The notes: generated by a model not told the origin, from the sequence alone. A DNA stretch of 64,000 nt from an uncultured Methanomassiliicoccales archaeon (GCA_964580935.1 CAZOLG010000002.1:259627-323626); one strand, 5' to 3'. Positions 42,197-46,180 are shown, numbered from the stretch's first letter. Numbers and translations are program-made.

Positions 42197-42940
42197 ATGA
42201 GGGGATCAGCCTTCGATGTCTATTCTACCAGCTCCGGGCTGAAGCAGATCTCGAATTCAGTGAGACAGAAGATTTTAAATGAACTGCAAGAACAGGATCT
42301 CAGTTTGAGTGAGATAGCTGATTTGACCAATAAGGCCCAGTCGACCCTCTCTGTACACCTGGACAAGATGGTAAAGATGGGGCTGGTGTCTTCCAGAGAT
42401 GACCCTTCCGACAATAGAAGGAAGATATTCTACCTGATCTCTGATCCAGTAGGCAGCTCAGTGGTCCCCAGAGATGATTTGAAGGAAGCTATCGGCAATA
42501 CCATCAATGATTCCATTGGAGACTCGTGCACATTCATGAAGGGGATCCTGAGGTCGGTCATACTGGGCATTGAGGCCATCGGGTTCAACATGGATCCTGT
42601 ACTGAAAGATATAGGGAAGCAAATCGGGAAGGAGCTTTCCAAACATATGGAGTCCGATTCCTTAGAGGGGGTGATCGAGAACATACAAGAGTTCTACGAT
42701 AAACACGGACTGGGGGAAGTATGCGTATACTCTTTCCTGCCCCTTACCTTAATCATCAGGGACAACGGCAACTGCTCCGATATCCCTGAGGCGACTAAGA
42801 CCCTATACCTGATTAATGAAGGGGTGCTGGAAACAATTCTGGAGAACAATTCTGAGATGTCTCTCAAGGTCACAGACAGCGAATGTTTTGGCACCGAACT
42901 CAACTGCTGTAAATATATCATAGAACCTGCGGCTCAATAA
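42197..42940 (+). CDS. ArsR-HTH plus V4R-domain transcriptional regulator
   Basis: VRQKIL..L...LSLSEI...KAQSTLSVHL. C-terminal V4R motif EG.L...EC.G....CC.Y.I. Confidence 0.85.
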   Translation: MRGSAFDVYSTSSGLKQISNSVRQKILNELQEQDLSLSEIADLTNKAQSTLSVHLDKMVKMGLVSSRDDPSDNRRKIFYLISDPVGSSVVPRDDLKEAIGNTINDSIGDSCTFMKGILRSVILGIEAIGFNMDPVLKDIGKQIGKELSKHMESDSLEGVIENIQEFYDKHGLGEVCVYSFLPLTLIIRDNGNCSDIPEATKTLYLINEGVLETILENNSEMSLKVTDSECFGTELNCCKYIIEPAAQ

Positions 42941-42984: not shown

Positions 42985-44451
42985 TTATGGCGTGTACTTG
43001 AACGGATGGCGCACAGACTGTTTCTGATACTGGATCTCTTCTTCAGTGGGTCTGTTCTCCAGGGCCTTTCTGATCGCGTATCTGGCCCCCTTGTAGTTGT
43101 TGACCATCACTCTGCGCTTGTTCGCCGCCGCTGGGTGAACGAATACGTTGGCGATGATCACGATATCGTCCAGTATGGCATCGGGCAAGAACCCGTCCTC
43201 AATACTGGCGTCTACCGCCCACTTCAGTCCCTCCACAGCATGGTTGTAGATCAGGTCCTTCTGATTGCTGGTGCGGGGTGTGATGGTAGGCACTAGAAGC
43301 GTCCGTGGCCTGTCGATCACGATACGCATCTTACCGCCATCATCCACCTCGAGAGCGTTTTCTATGGCCTTTTCGACCGGGCCGTCCTTGAGCCCTATTA
43401 GAAGATCGGTGTGTGCCACTTCGTGATGGGGGGGTCCAGCGTATCCCTCACCCACCCTCAGGGAGAAGTTATCGATAACCTCCGGAGTCTGTGGTGTCGC
43501 GGGTACGCTCGTCTCTATCACACGATCAGGGCCCAGAATGTACTTGGTCTTCCGGCTCTCGATCTTTCCCAGGTTCTCCAGCTCAATTCTCAGCTCTTCT
43601 CTGTCCTCGTGCTGGAATGAGTCCCCGGGCATGGTTGGCCTCCTTGCCTTTCCCACGTCCACACCCATCATCCACAGGCCATCCTTGACCGCCTGAACTC
43701 CACCGGTGCGAACCACTATCCTGACCAGCTTTTGCATCTTCTGCTGGAGTTGGCGCGCCTTCTCCAGCTCTCCCTCCTGGACATACCTGTAGACATCCTG
43801 CCAGTAGTCAGGGATCAGGTTGGCGCTGGCCAGTATGGCTCCATCGGCCCCTTCACCAATGGCCGCCATACCCACTTCGTCGTTGCCCACCAGGATGTTC
43901 ACTTTCTCCCTCACCTTCTCGAACAGAGCTGCAGTATAGGGAATATCCCCGCTGGAGTCTTTGACTCCTATCACGTTGTCCAGGTAGGAAAGACCCTCGG
44001 TAGTCCACCATTTCTGATGGACACCAGCGCACTGAGGGATGTTGTAGAGGATCAGAGGGTAACCTAGCTGGTCCAACTTCTCATAATGCTTGTAGATCTC
44101 GTTCCATGATGGCTTGAAATAATACGGGGTGACCACCAGTGCAGCGTCCGCCCCCACGTCCATTGCCTTCTGTGTGAGACTTATGGTGTTCTTGGTGCTG
44201 CTGGCACCGGTCCCAGCAATCACTGGTTTCGTGCCGTCCACGTGATCGACGACCACTTCGATGGCTCTGGTCCTCTCGTCATCATTCATGTACACAAATT
44301 CGCCTGTGGTGCCCGCCACCACAAAACCGTCCACGTCATCCATCAGATGATCGACTAGCGCCCTCAACCTCTCTTCGTCCAGCTTCTCCTCCTTGTCGAA
44401 GGGTGTCACTATGGCCGGAAATATGCCCTTTAACCAGTCTACTCTCGGCAT
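42985..44451 (-). CDS. DapA/NanA-family class I aldolase fused to a formaldehyde-activating enzyme (Fae) domain, copy A
   Basis: GIFPAIVTPF, GTTGE, PYY, YNIP, Schiff-base GVKDS. C-terminal VGEG..G...EVAHTDLLIG, VFVHP.A, NY, RHPF. Confidence 0.88.
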   Translation of the reverse strand: MPRVDWLKGIFPAIVTPFDKEEKLDEERLRALVDHLMDDVDGFVVAGTTGEFVYMNDDERTRAIEVVVDHVDGTKPVIAGTGASSTKNTISLTQKAMDVGADAALVVTPYYFKPSWNEIYKHYEKLDQLGYPLILYNIPQCAGVHQKWWTTEGLSYLDNVIGVKDSSGDIPYTAALFEKVREKVNILVGNDEVGMAAIGEGADGAILASANLIPDYWQDVYRYVQEGELEKARQLQQKMQKLVRIVVRTGGVQAVKDGLWMMGVDVGKARRPTMPGDSFQHEDREELRIELENLGKIESRKTKYILGPDRVIETSVPATPQTPEVIDNFSLRVGEGYAGPPHHEVAHTDLLIGLKDGPVEKAIENALEVDDGGKMRIVIDRPRTLLVPTITPRTSNQKDLIYNHAVEGLKWAVDASIEDGFLPDAILDDIVIIANVFVHPAAANKRRVMVNNYKGARYAIRKALENRPTEEEIQYQKQSVRHPFKYTP

Positions 44452-44452
44452 T

Positions 44453-45880
44453 TCAGTTCACCTCCTTTGAGAAAGCCATGTCTATCGCCTCGGTGGTCGC
44501 TTCGTAGAAGTTATGATAAAGTATAGTTCTATCCAGTGCATCGGGATGAACGAATGCCTTTGTCAACATCACGTGAGTGCTCCTGAGATCGCTCGGTATG
44601 ATTCCCTGTTCCACCTTATCACTGATCGCCTTGGCTATCCCCGCCTGGGCCGGTCCGTACATGATGTTTGCCTGCCTCAAGCTCTTCAGCTGTACGGTAG
44701 GTACGATCAACGTTGATGGTTTGGCTGACAGGTTCGGTTCGAGAACACTGGGAAGGGCTTCATACCCTCTTCTCAGGTAAGTGATCTGACATGCGAATGC
44801 TTCTCCCACCGGGCTATCGTTAGGCCCGGCTACCAGGTCCACGGTGACCCTGTTCAGGTCAGTACCTGCGGAAGAACTCCCGGCCATCACCTCGTTAGAA
44901 TTCACATGCTGTGGGGAGATGCCGACGTCTTCGAATTTTTCCTCCAGAGGAACTTCCGGTAACGCGGCGGTGGGTTCTGAAGGCGGCCTCTTACCGATCT
45001 TTTCCAGCTCCAGTCTGATCTCTTCCCTGTCCTCATGAAGTATCACTCCGCCTTCCCTCATGGGGCTGCGAGTCCTGCCCATGCTCATACCCATGTACCT
45101 GAGGGCGGCTTTGACGGGGACCATCCCCCCATACCTGGTGAATATCCTGGACAGCTTCTGTACCTTCCTCTGTTCTTCTCTTGCCTCCTCGAGGTCGCCC
45201 GACATGACAGCCTGGAAGACTTTCTGCCAGATATCGGGATAAACCTGCCCGCTGGCCAGGATCATGCCGCTGCATCCTCCGGCCAGAGCGGGGAGGACCA
45301 CCTCGTCGTGACCCACCAAGACGTCAATCCTTCCTTCTACCTTTTCCAAGATCTCCATGGTGTAGGTCAGATCTCCAGAAGAGTCCTTCAGACCGATAAC
45401 GTTGTCCAATTCAGACAGATCCTCAACCACCCTCCTGGGGAGATAGTCTCCCACCGTCTGAGGTATGTTGTAGAGAATAATGGGAAGATCTGTTGACTGG
45501 GAAAGTTGCCAGAAGTGTTCATAAATCCCTTTATCAGAAGGGTGGAGGAAGTACGGGGTGACCACTAGACAGGCATCTGCACCCGCGTCCTCGGCGTACT
45601 GTGTCAGTTCGATCACCTGCTGCGTGCCCGGTGCCCCAGTACCGGCAATCACCGGCTTCTCTCCATTCACTTCATCTATGCAAACATCGAAGAGACTTTT
45701 CCTCTCATCCACGGTCAGATAGTCAAACTCCCCCGTTGTTCCACAGGGGACAAATCCGTCTACATGATCGAAAATATGCTGGATGAGGCTTCGGAATGCC
45801 TCTTCATCCAACTCCTTTTCCTTGTCAAATGGAGTCACTAAAGCGGGGAATACCCCTTCTAATTTGAGTTCTCTGGTCAT
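44453..45880 (-). CDS. DapA/NanA-family class I aldolase fused to a Fae domain, copy B
   Basis: GVFPALVTPF, GTTGE, YNIP, GLKDS. C-terminal DLVAGP..SPVGEAF, PNL..KP.TL, YGPAQAG, GIIP, FVHP.A, YEAT. Confidence 0.88.
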   Translation of the reverse strand: MTRELKLEGVFPALVTPFDKEKELDEEAFRSLIQHIFDHVDGFVPCGTTGEFDYLTVDERKSLFDVCIDEVNGEKPVIAGTGAPGTQQVIELTQYAEDAGADACLVVTPYFLHPSDKGIYEHFWQLSQSTDLPIILYNIPQTVGDYLPRRVVEDLSELDNVIGLKDSSGDLTYTMEILEKVEGRIDVLVGHDEVVLPALAGGCSGMILASGQVYPDIWQKVFQAVMSGDLEEAREEQRKVQKLSRIFTRYGGMVPVKAALRYMGMSMGRTRSPMREGGVILHEDREEIRLELEKIGKRPPSEPTAALPEVPLEEKFEDVGISPQHVNSNEVMAGSSSAGTDLNRVTVDLVAGPNDSPVGEAFACQITYLRRGYEALPSVLEPNLSAKPSTLIVPTVQLKSLRQANIMYGPAQAGIAKAISDKVEQGIIPSDLRSTHVMLTKAFVHPDALDRTILYHNFYEATTEAIDMAFSKEVN

Positions 45881-46082: not shown

Positions 46083-46180
46083 TGGGCTCACCCGGATTTG
46101 AACCGGGGACCTCCGCCACTTCGACCCTCCCGGAATGGAGAGATGTCAAGGCGACGTCATAACCACTAGACTATGAGCCC
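46083..46180 (-). tRNA. tRNA-Val(GAC) with a 25-nt intron at 37/38 (46119-46143)
   Basis: Acceptor GGGCTCA/TGAGCCC, anticodon arm TCGCC-TTGACA^T-GGCGG, T-loop TTCAAAT. The intron forms a bulge-helix-bulge. Confidence 0.95.

Follow-up and report, generated by a model that had tools for sequence, protein, structure and literature searches.

A tandem pair of aldolase–Fae fusion proteins with reciprocal motif losses, and the case for two co-dependent subunits

Formaldehyde-activating enzyme (Fae) is reportedly a homopentamer that binds its cofactor between subunits, with His22 said to serve as the acid catalyst, Gln88 to flip and a C-terminal arm to become ordered. Two adjacent genes of an uncultured Methanomassiliicoccales archaeon raise the question of whether an interfacial site of this kind can be partitioned between paralogues. 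The genes lie on the minus strand of a 64,000-nucleotide stretch (GCA_964580935.1 CAZOLG010000002.1:259627-323626; hereafter the window, in which all positions are given), and each has an intact frame encoding an N-terminal DHDPS-family aldolase domain and a C-terminal Fae domain (PF00701 and PF08714). A sequence-only reading of the upstream gene, copy B, and the downstream gene, copy A, had proposed that their Fae domains are degenerate in complementary ways and form a split active site in an obligate heteromer. Each Fae domain keeps only motifs lost by the other, so that A and B probably work only together, and we conclude, with a probability of about one half, that they are two co-dependent subunits of one uncharacterised enzyme.

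Reciprocal motif states of the two Fae domains

We aligned both copies to the Fae of Methylobacterium/Methylorubrum extorquens (PDB 1Y5Y; E 1.4e-17 for copy A and 1.7e-22 for copy B) and re-translated the coordinates. All motif differences described by the sequence-only reading are present (Table 1), and two of its details change. The EPNL-type loop of A is deleted as claimed, but the strand equivalent to LLAV, said to be lost with it, persists as RIVI; the arm of A does contain RHPF but continues for four residues beyond it, giving the C-terminus RHPFKYTP. The last residues of copy B, ...AFSKEVN, reach only residue 146 of the 169 in the 1Y5Y chain, so that B is about 20 residues short and devoid of the arm. 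Profile-profile comparison shows the two Fae domains to be homologous (probability 99.7%, with 26% identity across 144 columns), and both pass the PF08714 cut-off of 27, at 101 and 129 bits for A and B versus 187-213 for single-copy forms of the fusion. Against the TIGR03126 equivalog-domain model (cut-off 118.05), B passes with 132.8 and A falls below with 113.6. AlphaFold2 monomer models of the Fae domains (mean pLDDT 86.4 and pTM 0.83 for A; 84.7 and 0.84 for B) place strands and helices in the same order in both copies. The last nine residues of A, which form the arm, have pLDDT below 50, and a 10-residue block of B with the PNL loop averages 50; these low-confidence elements are the ones that a heteromer model would join, which is suggestive only.

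Protein searches returned thousands of DHDPS+Fae proteins from Methanomassiliicoccales, other Thermoplasmatota and Chloroflexota, mostly labelled 4-hydroxy-tetrahydrodipicolinate synthase. A first scan of species genomes with a single-protein query returned no relative; an alignment query succeeded, yielding 583 relatives among 598 candidates, and our locus counts refer to the best 80 loci, sorted by similarity to A and to B. A B-type gene is followed by an A-type gene in 31 of the 80 (Thermoplasmata, Anaerolineae/Chloroflexota, Myxococcales and Thorarchaeota). Ten contain only an A-type gene, seven of them with fewer than 600 bases upstream. The remaining 39 hold a single gene with 43-49% identity to A and B about equally, from Bathyarchaeia (17), Promethearchaeota (15), Hod, Odin and Thor (1 each) and unclassified archaea (4). 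A set of 104 Fae domains was then aligned with a canonical stand-alone Fae (L083) and their motifs tallied.

All four motifs are intact in the 39 single-copy relatives. The A-type domains retain the catalytic-loop His and Asp without exception (33/33), have uniformly deleted the PNL loop and never keep the Gly, Pro or Gln of GPxQ (0/33). The Gly position is occupied by E (23), D (5), T (3), N (1) or V (1), the Pro position by nine different residues and the Gln position by A (22), V (5), T (4), G (1) or L (1). At the catalytic His position, the 29 B-type domains have Q 22 times, T, H and G twice each and R once, and the C-terminal arm is missing from all of them. The same reciprocal rule is obeyed by three Thorarchaeota pairs. 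The sequence-only reading had offered the recurrence of these losses in orthologous pairs as a check, and they recur without exception in the orthologous pairs that we compared (33 A-type copies and 29 B-type copies, four phyla). Because the same states are fixed in all of these sequences, the alignments indicate that the reciprocal pattern is not chance. As a side observation, the Fae match of the B-type genes of three genomes of one genus (G004, G031 and G039; genus g5) reaches profile position 146 in a frame that holds one TAG, which could be read-through, a pyrrolysine codon or simply a stop before gene A.

Invariance was computed over 18 pairs, whose hosts mostly lack enzymes of the tetrahydromethanopterin (H4MPT) pathway. 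Invariant A-type residues include G13, E14, G15, P19, P20, H26, D28 ... R160, H161 and P162, with the Pro-Pro beside the His loop being a gain of the A-type; invariant B-type residues include E57, P58, L60 ... G85, P86 and Q88. Invariance of the kept halves, with drift at the lost positions, is what marks a copy that has one face under constraint and the other relaxed.

At the level of single columns the complementarity is less sharp. Among 78 Fae columns conserved at 90% or more in single-copy forms, both copies keep 18, A alone keeps 16, B alone keeps 10 and neither copy keeps 6, and 28 are mixed. The six joint losses compare with about seven expected if losses were independent (16 lost in A and 22 in B among the 50 clear-cut columns); they are at chance level, and the complementarity is therefore segmental, a matter of motifs, and not a statistical excess. 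The segments kept, in canonical positions, are 10-21 and 116-166 in A and 38-58 and 84-87 in B. Such figures would suit a pair of decaying duplicates that lost motifs independently and look complementary only by chance, the more so since, by our own arithmetic, four motifs with two lost per copy split perfectly by chance about once in six. Decay does not, however, lead one to expect intact frames in both genes, pair genes that retain 40-79% identity in Thermoplasmatota, Chloroflexota, Myxococcota and Thorarchaeota, many invariant residues in both copies or confident AlphaFold2 models of both Fae domains, and we regard it as close to refuted.

The layout of the genes is compact. GAGGAGGT precedes the ATG of copy B, and a Shine-Dalgarno-like AAGGAGGTGA, still within the terminal part of gene B, stands nine bases ahead of the A start codon, an arrangement typical of translational coupling.

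Table 1. Coordinates of the two fusion genes, their domains and the motif positions compared
Feature	Position	Strand	Description
Copy B, upstream gene	44453..45880	-	Open reading frame, 475 aa; aldolase + B-type Fae domain; Pfam DHDPS 242.6 bits, Fae 129.2 bits
Copy B aldolase (DHDPS-family) domain	45053..45862	-	Residues 7-276; PF00701
Copy B Fae domain	44465..44866	-	Residues 339-472; profile positions 7-140 of 159; PF08714, 129.2 bits
Thr codon at Fae catalytic His position, copy B	44843..44845	-	Within RVTVDL, 44834-44851
PNL loop, copy B	44729..44737	-	Kept; Pro 29/29, Leu 29/29 B-type
GPAQ, copy B	44645..44656	-	Kept; Gly, Pro and Gln each 29/29 B-type
B/A junction	44449..44470	-	AAGGAGGTGA within the 3' end of B, TGA stop, one base, ATG of A (sequence reading)
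Copy A, downstream gene	42985..44451	-	Open reading frame, 488 aa; aldolase + A-type Fae domain; Pfam DHDPS 246 bits, Fae 101.1 bits
Copy A aldolase (DHDPS-family) domain	43618..44433	-	Residues 7-278; PF00701
Copy A Fae domain	43000..43455	-	Residues 333-484; profile positions 1-158 of 159; PF08714, 101.1 bits
His codon of EVAH, copy A	43411..43413	-	Fae His22 equivalent kept; His in 33/33 A-type
PNL-loop deletion site, copy A	43306..43335	-	5-residue gap, at the break in GKMRIVID/RP; gap in 33/33 A-type
NHAV replacing GPAQ, copy A	43234..43245	-	Re-translation
RHPF of C-terminal arm, copy A	43000..43011	-	Kept; His and Pro 32/33 A-type (one miss cut by contig end)

Co-occurrence and shared history of the pair

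If the copies depend on each other, neither should be found alone. The source genome (1.87 Mb, 99.86% complete) encodes exactly two Fae domains, those of copies A and B. Within the same order Fae occurs in 14 of 41 genomes, 13 of which have the tandem pair, the exception being an 81% complete genome; in a sample of 301 genomes from the phylum, Fae was found in eight, as the pair in seven (all of the fused type) and as a stand-alone protein in one. Five A-type loci without an adjacent B were followed up by whole-genome search, which located a B-type gene on another contig in all five, and in one Anaerolineae subgroup the two genes are unlinked. In the same-order set and the phylum sample, no genome of at least 90% completeness has a degenerate copy alone. 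The sequence-only reading had held that orthologues commonly occurring singly would speak against it; the opposite was found, in that only intact forms occur singly (39 loci).

The trees of A and B are congruent. A 63-row tree groups the B-type copies, the Thorarchaeota upstream copies among them, with an SH-aLRT support of 98; the A clade has a support of 100, with the downstream copies of Thorarchaeota attached to it at 87, and the single-copy clade has 82. A tree of the Fae domain alone agrees, and carries a warning of long branches meeting. Sub-clades are mirrored in A and B (the window with L003; L006 with L027; L078 with L032; L009 with two Myxococcales; and L005, L013, L017 and L018), and the distance matrices of the A and B Fae domains correlate with r = 0.74, a value reached in 0 of 2000 permutations. 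A single duplication, after which both copies were inherited and transferred jointly, would account for this history. We also considered whether Thorarchaeota acquired their pair by a duplication of their own, which could have served as a replicate; this is unsupported by the best tree, yet not rejected (p-AU, from the approximately unbiased test, 0.106).

Aldolase domains and the one-carbon context

The N-terminal domains are the better preserved half of the fusion. Their best solved relative, M. jannaschii DHDPS (2yxg), aligns end to end with both copies (E 9e-51 for B and 1.5e-46 for A), each of which keeps the Schiff-base Lys (45386-45388 in B, 43960-43962 in A), the Tyr of YNIP and GTTGE. 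Throughout the family, the Lys and the YNxP Tyr (Tyr133 equivalent) are present in 32/32 A-type, 25/25 B-type and 39/39 single-copy sequences, and the GTTGE Thr pair (Thr44/45 equivalents) in all but one B-type copy of the same set. Taking these residues to play the roles that we assume for them in DHDPS and N-acetylneuraminate lyase, both barrels look like working pyruvate-type class I aldolases. The pocket differs elsewhere. The Arg in NVPSRT of 2yxg, equivalent to Arg138 of E. coli DapA and presumably the carboxylate binder of aspartate semialdehyde, is replaced by Cys in A and by Thr in B; at this position the A-type has C (30) or T (2), the B-type V (17), T (5), C, M or L (1 each) and single-copy forms C (35), A (3) or V (1). 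The position of Tyr107, which we take to be the cross-subunit Tyr of DapA, is Phe in copy B and in 23 of 25 B-type copies. On the TIGR00674 dapA equivalog model (cut-off 206.15), A scores below the threshold (204.5) and B above it (223.9), and the source genome encodes a separate canonical DHDPS of 290 aa (313 bits). Judged by these residues, neither aldolase domain looks like a true DapA, and thousands of database entries would then carry the label of this lysine enzyme wrongly. In all, the source genome has six DHDPS-family genes: the two fusions, the canonical one and three at 187-253 bits.

These pocket differences bear on the idea that A and B are subfunctionalised, separate enzymes that share a pathway and form no complex. 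Copy A would then be a self-sufficient Fae-like catalyst for another carrier, having shed its H4MPT-specific contacts, and B a homomeric aldolase with a non-catalytic pterin-binding domain. The idea accounts well for the distinct B pocket (Val or Thr at the Arg138 position versus Cys, and Phe at that of Tyr107), for the His, Asp and arm retained by A together with its newly invariant Pro-Pro, and for the genes being unlinked in the Anaerolineae subgroup. It sits poorly with a co-occurrence that stays strict even where the genes are unlinked (5/5), with the translational coupling that the junction here suggests, and with the absence from each domain of motifs that the 39 intact relatives share without variation; we consider it a serious alternative, though an unlikely one.

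We then turn to the hosts. The source genome encodes McrA, as do 38 of the 41 genomes of the order, and FolD and SHMT. Mch, Ftr and RFAP synthase were not detected in the source genome, despite its near-completeness; Mch is found in 0/41 same-order genomes, and Mer above its cut-off likewise in 0/41, the source genome included. A survey of 243 Methanomassiliicoccales genomes reports that ftr and mch are absent and describes a tetrahydrofolate branch (PMC10804542). Mch occurs in one of 19 pair genomes from outside Thorarchaeota, in 3/3 Thorarchaeota pair genomes and in 18/20 single-copy genomes, the two misses being genomes of 1.2-1.4 Mb. RFAP synthase scores above cut-off in 0/22 pair genomes and in 12/12 Asgard or unclassified single-copy genomes; its model missed all eight Bathyarchaeia having Mch and is therefore an insensitive marker. 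A second, stronger Fae match lies elsewhere in 5/5 single-copy genomes. No Fae other than the pair was found in the three Thorarchaeota pair genomes, and since these have Mch, the pair is the only candidate Fae there. Thorarchaeota apart, the degenerate pair is found in hosts that mostly lack H4MPT enzymes, an observation that is new here, and any rebuilt site therefore probably serves another carrier. The Fae-type site of the sequence-only reading has to be qualified to this extent, because an H4MPT Fae site is hardly possible in a genome in which Mch, Ftr, Mer and RFAP synthase were not detected.

Two side observations concern the same genomes. The sole pair genome from outside Thorarchaeota with Mch (433.8 bits) is the one behind L005 (G334), labelled an Anaerolineales metagenome-assembled genome, and the match may mean either that the organism does use H4MPT or that contaminating sequence was binned with it. 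A gene for an MtrH-like pterin methyltransferase (G000:C1:23467-24348 (-)), located outside the window, lies about 8 kb from mcrA, with comparable spacing in many relatives. Of the 41 genomes of the order, 25 carry it, among them 13 of the 14 pair carriers; the genomes lack Mch and Mer.

The absence of H4MPT enzymes from the hosts also suits an arrangement in which A and B associate through their aldolase domains alone, as a DHDPS-family dimer or tetramer, and the Fae domains are non-catalytic, perhaps a ligand sensor or structural lid, with no shared site. In its favour, the aldolase is far better conserved, with 75 of 120 columns that are conserved in single-copy forms kept in both copies versus 18 of 78 for the Fae domain, and the Fae domains score well below those of single-copy forms (101 and 129 versus 187-213 bits). 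Purely structural modules would, however, hardly be expected to show, across phyla, an invariant catalytic His and Asp in the A-type and an invariant Gly, Pro and Gln in the B-type, nor does a non-catalytic role agree with Thorarchaeota pair genomes that have Mch but no other Fae. We therefore judge this arrangement unlikely.

For the co-dependent enzyme that we favour, a mechanism can be sketched. The Fae domains of A and B would pack together like neighbouring Fae subunits; A would supply the His loop together with the arm, and B would add the PNL loop and GPxQ. One A:B interface would then hold an entire formaldehyde/pterin site, and the interface formed the other way round would be dead. 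By analogy with Fae-Hps fusions, this site might pass a one-carbon (C1) unit, formaldehyde either free or pterin-bound, to or from the aldolase, for which the most economical chemistry would be pyruvate + C1 <-> 4-hydroxy-2-oxobutanoate. Since FolD is present and Mch, Ftr, Mer and RFAP synthase were not detected, the carrier is more likely tetrahydrofolate or another pterin than H4MPT. A review describes the condensation of pyruvate with C1 to 4-hydroxy-2-oxobutanoate from engineered bacteria only, as a promiscuous activity that was exploited in E. coli, and calls the product non-native (PMC8879981); the pair may show whether a natural pyruvate-formaldehyde aldolase route exists. A more complete scheme can be drawn, and we hold it to be speculative and rather improbable. 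In this scheme, one duplication would have left each paralogue with one interface face, turning a ring-forming homopentamer into an A:B heterodimeric module that fits the dimeric or tetrameric aldolase scaffold; the split site would have been re-tooled for a non-H4MPT pterin such as tetrahydrofolate, and the two aldolase domains would catalyse the natural reaction pyruvate + C1-pterin <-> 4-hydroxy-2-oxobutanoate.

Several points weigh against co-dependent subunits with a divided site. A different partition of His22, Gln88, the PNL loop and the arm among the chains of the solved pentamer would leave no complete site. The joint losses of conserved columns are about as many as independent loss predicts (6 versus about 7). 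The earlier proposal of an obligate heteromer with a split Fae site is thus partly supported, by the reciprocal losses, the single occurrence of intact forms, the strict co-occurrence and the congruent trees, and is weakened at the level of columns and by the missing H4MPT enzymes. The congruence of the trees is itself explicable by shared inheritance alone. A tree in which the Thorarchaeota copies are forced into one clade, as an independent duplication would require, is worse by 20.2 log-likelihood units, and the test does not reject it (p-AU 0.106), the group having been chosen with the tree already in view. All pairs may, on the other hand, stem from one duplication, which makes the pattern one long-kept event and not many replicates. 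With hosts that lack H4MPT enzymes (Mch in 1/19 and 0/41), the canonical Fae reaction cannot be assumed. Finally, homoserine dehydrogenase and SHMT are present, so that no pathway gap points to the proposed chemistry.

We also considered the pair as a substitute for a missing source of homoserine or C1 units, and set this aside, because homoserine dehydrogenase is encoded in the source genome and SHMT occurs in 40 of 41 relatives regardless of whether they have the pair. Should the more complete scheme above be correct, the pair would be an undescribed one-carbon entry or exit in methyl-reducing methanogens, Anaerolineae and Myxococcota. Its presence in methanogens without the H4MPT pathway may in any case reveal how they handle formaldehyde or one-carbon units.

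The gene neighbourhood was examined as a further clue to the pathway and rejected as such, since the same-order flanks offer only housekeeping genes and a regulator, and two neighbours of relatives that match no known family were not found in the source genome with the queries used. The regulator is an ArsR/MarR-type helix-turn-helix protein of 247 aa (window 42197-42940 (+)), convergent with gene A, whose C-terminal ~150 aa have no Pfam match; a homologue stands beside the pair in 9 of 15 regions, made up of the window and 8 of 9 same-order regions, with 0 of 5 from other orders. Just upstream of B is a tRNA gene (window 46083-46180 (-); Rfam RF00005, 57.9 bits) on which ARAGORN gave no report. 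Its anticodon region contains 27 inserted bases that are probably an archaeal intron, and its anticodon reads from the alignment as GAC (Val).

The two neighbours of relatives are as follows. A gene of ~430 aa (L060:4663-5949 (+) and 35 other loci) adjoins the single-copy fusion, in 36 of the 80 loci; it has no match in Pfam, NCBIfam or the PDB, is co-directional and abutting in Asgard and divergent in Bathyarchaeia, occurs in two Chloroflexota pair loci too, and was not found in the source genome with one query. A gene of ~325 aa (L004:3141-4115 (+) and seven other loci), without a Pfam or NCBIfam match, adjoins the pair or the single copy in Chloroflexota, Myxococcales, Thermoplasmata and one Bathyarchaeon, and was not found in the source genome. 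Its look-alike clusters in the ESM Atlas are partly labelled Peptidase_U32 (score 0.98; 17-23% of members), and we take this as no more than a lead.

Comparison with known systems

Literature searches returned no published description of an aldolase-Fae fusion among the matches listed, and the main text of a survey of archaeal fusions does not mention one, though its supplements may list it (PMC11237513). The closest relative of the pair is the single-copy fusion of Bathyarchaeia and Asgard, itself uncharacterised and annotated as 4-hydroxy-tetrahydrodipicolinate synthase, which has the same architecture, 43-49% identity to A and B and the same aldolase signature, with Cys at the Arg138 position. 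It differs in being one gene with intact Fae motifs (39/39), in hosts that have Mch (18/20) and a second, stronger Fae (5/5). An intact, ancestor-like form thus survives in other phyla for comparison.

Fae itself (PDB 1Y5Y/1Y60; PF08714, TIGR03126) is matched in sequence by both C-terminal domains, above the Pfam cut-off. Canonical Fae is reportedly a stand-alone homopentamer, whereas the domains of A and B are fused to an aldolase; the catalytic His, the PNL loop with GPAQ and the HPF arm do not come together in either subunit of the pair, half of the motifs being absent from each domain. The host differs as well, with a genome that lacks Mch, Ftr and Mer. If A and B do share a site, their pairing would explain how a five-fold ring enzyme came to be fused to a two-fold aldolase.

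The Fae-Hps fusions of methanogens and other archaea (NF009833) resemble the pair in joining a Fae domain to a formaldehyde-handling aldolase, and provide the model for hand-over of a C1 unit between two fused domains. Their partner is hexulose-6-phosphate synthase, whereas that of the pair is a DHDPS-family class I aldolase, and their Fae domain comes first, whereas in the pair the order is reversed and Fae is C-terminal. On NF009833, which has a cut-off of 274, A and B score 82.9 and 110.8, the match being confined to the Fae part, and Pfam finds no Hps domain. Fae is not split in Fae-Hps, whereas in the pair its function appears to be divided over two paralogues.

On the aldolase side, the pair aligns end to end with DapA/DHDPS and N-acetylneuraminate lyase (PF00701; 2yxg, 1dhp, 1nal) and keeps their Lys, YNxP Tyr and GTTGE. 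It departs from DapA at the Arg that we assume to bind aspartate semialdehyde, where A has Cys and B has Thr.

Dependence of one paralogue on another has a precedent in the deoxyhypusine synthase of trypanosomatids, which is reported to pair with a catalytically dead paralogue and to be active only as the heteromer, each paralogue being impaired by itself (PMC3663545). In such prozyme systems one partner is dead and the complex has been shown, whereas in the A/B pair the losses are reciprocal and the complex is predicted. Because the losses are reciprocal, neither copy can be called the enzyme and neither the helper. If the prediction is right, the pair would be a clean natural example of an interfacial active site partitioned between paralogues. 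A/B can be thought of as a real, conserved and unstudied two-gene enzyme, predicted from its sequence, and as a variant at once of Fae, of the DHDPS-family aldolases and of the paralogue-dependent enzymes.

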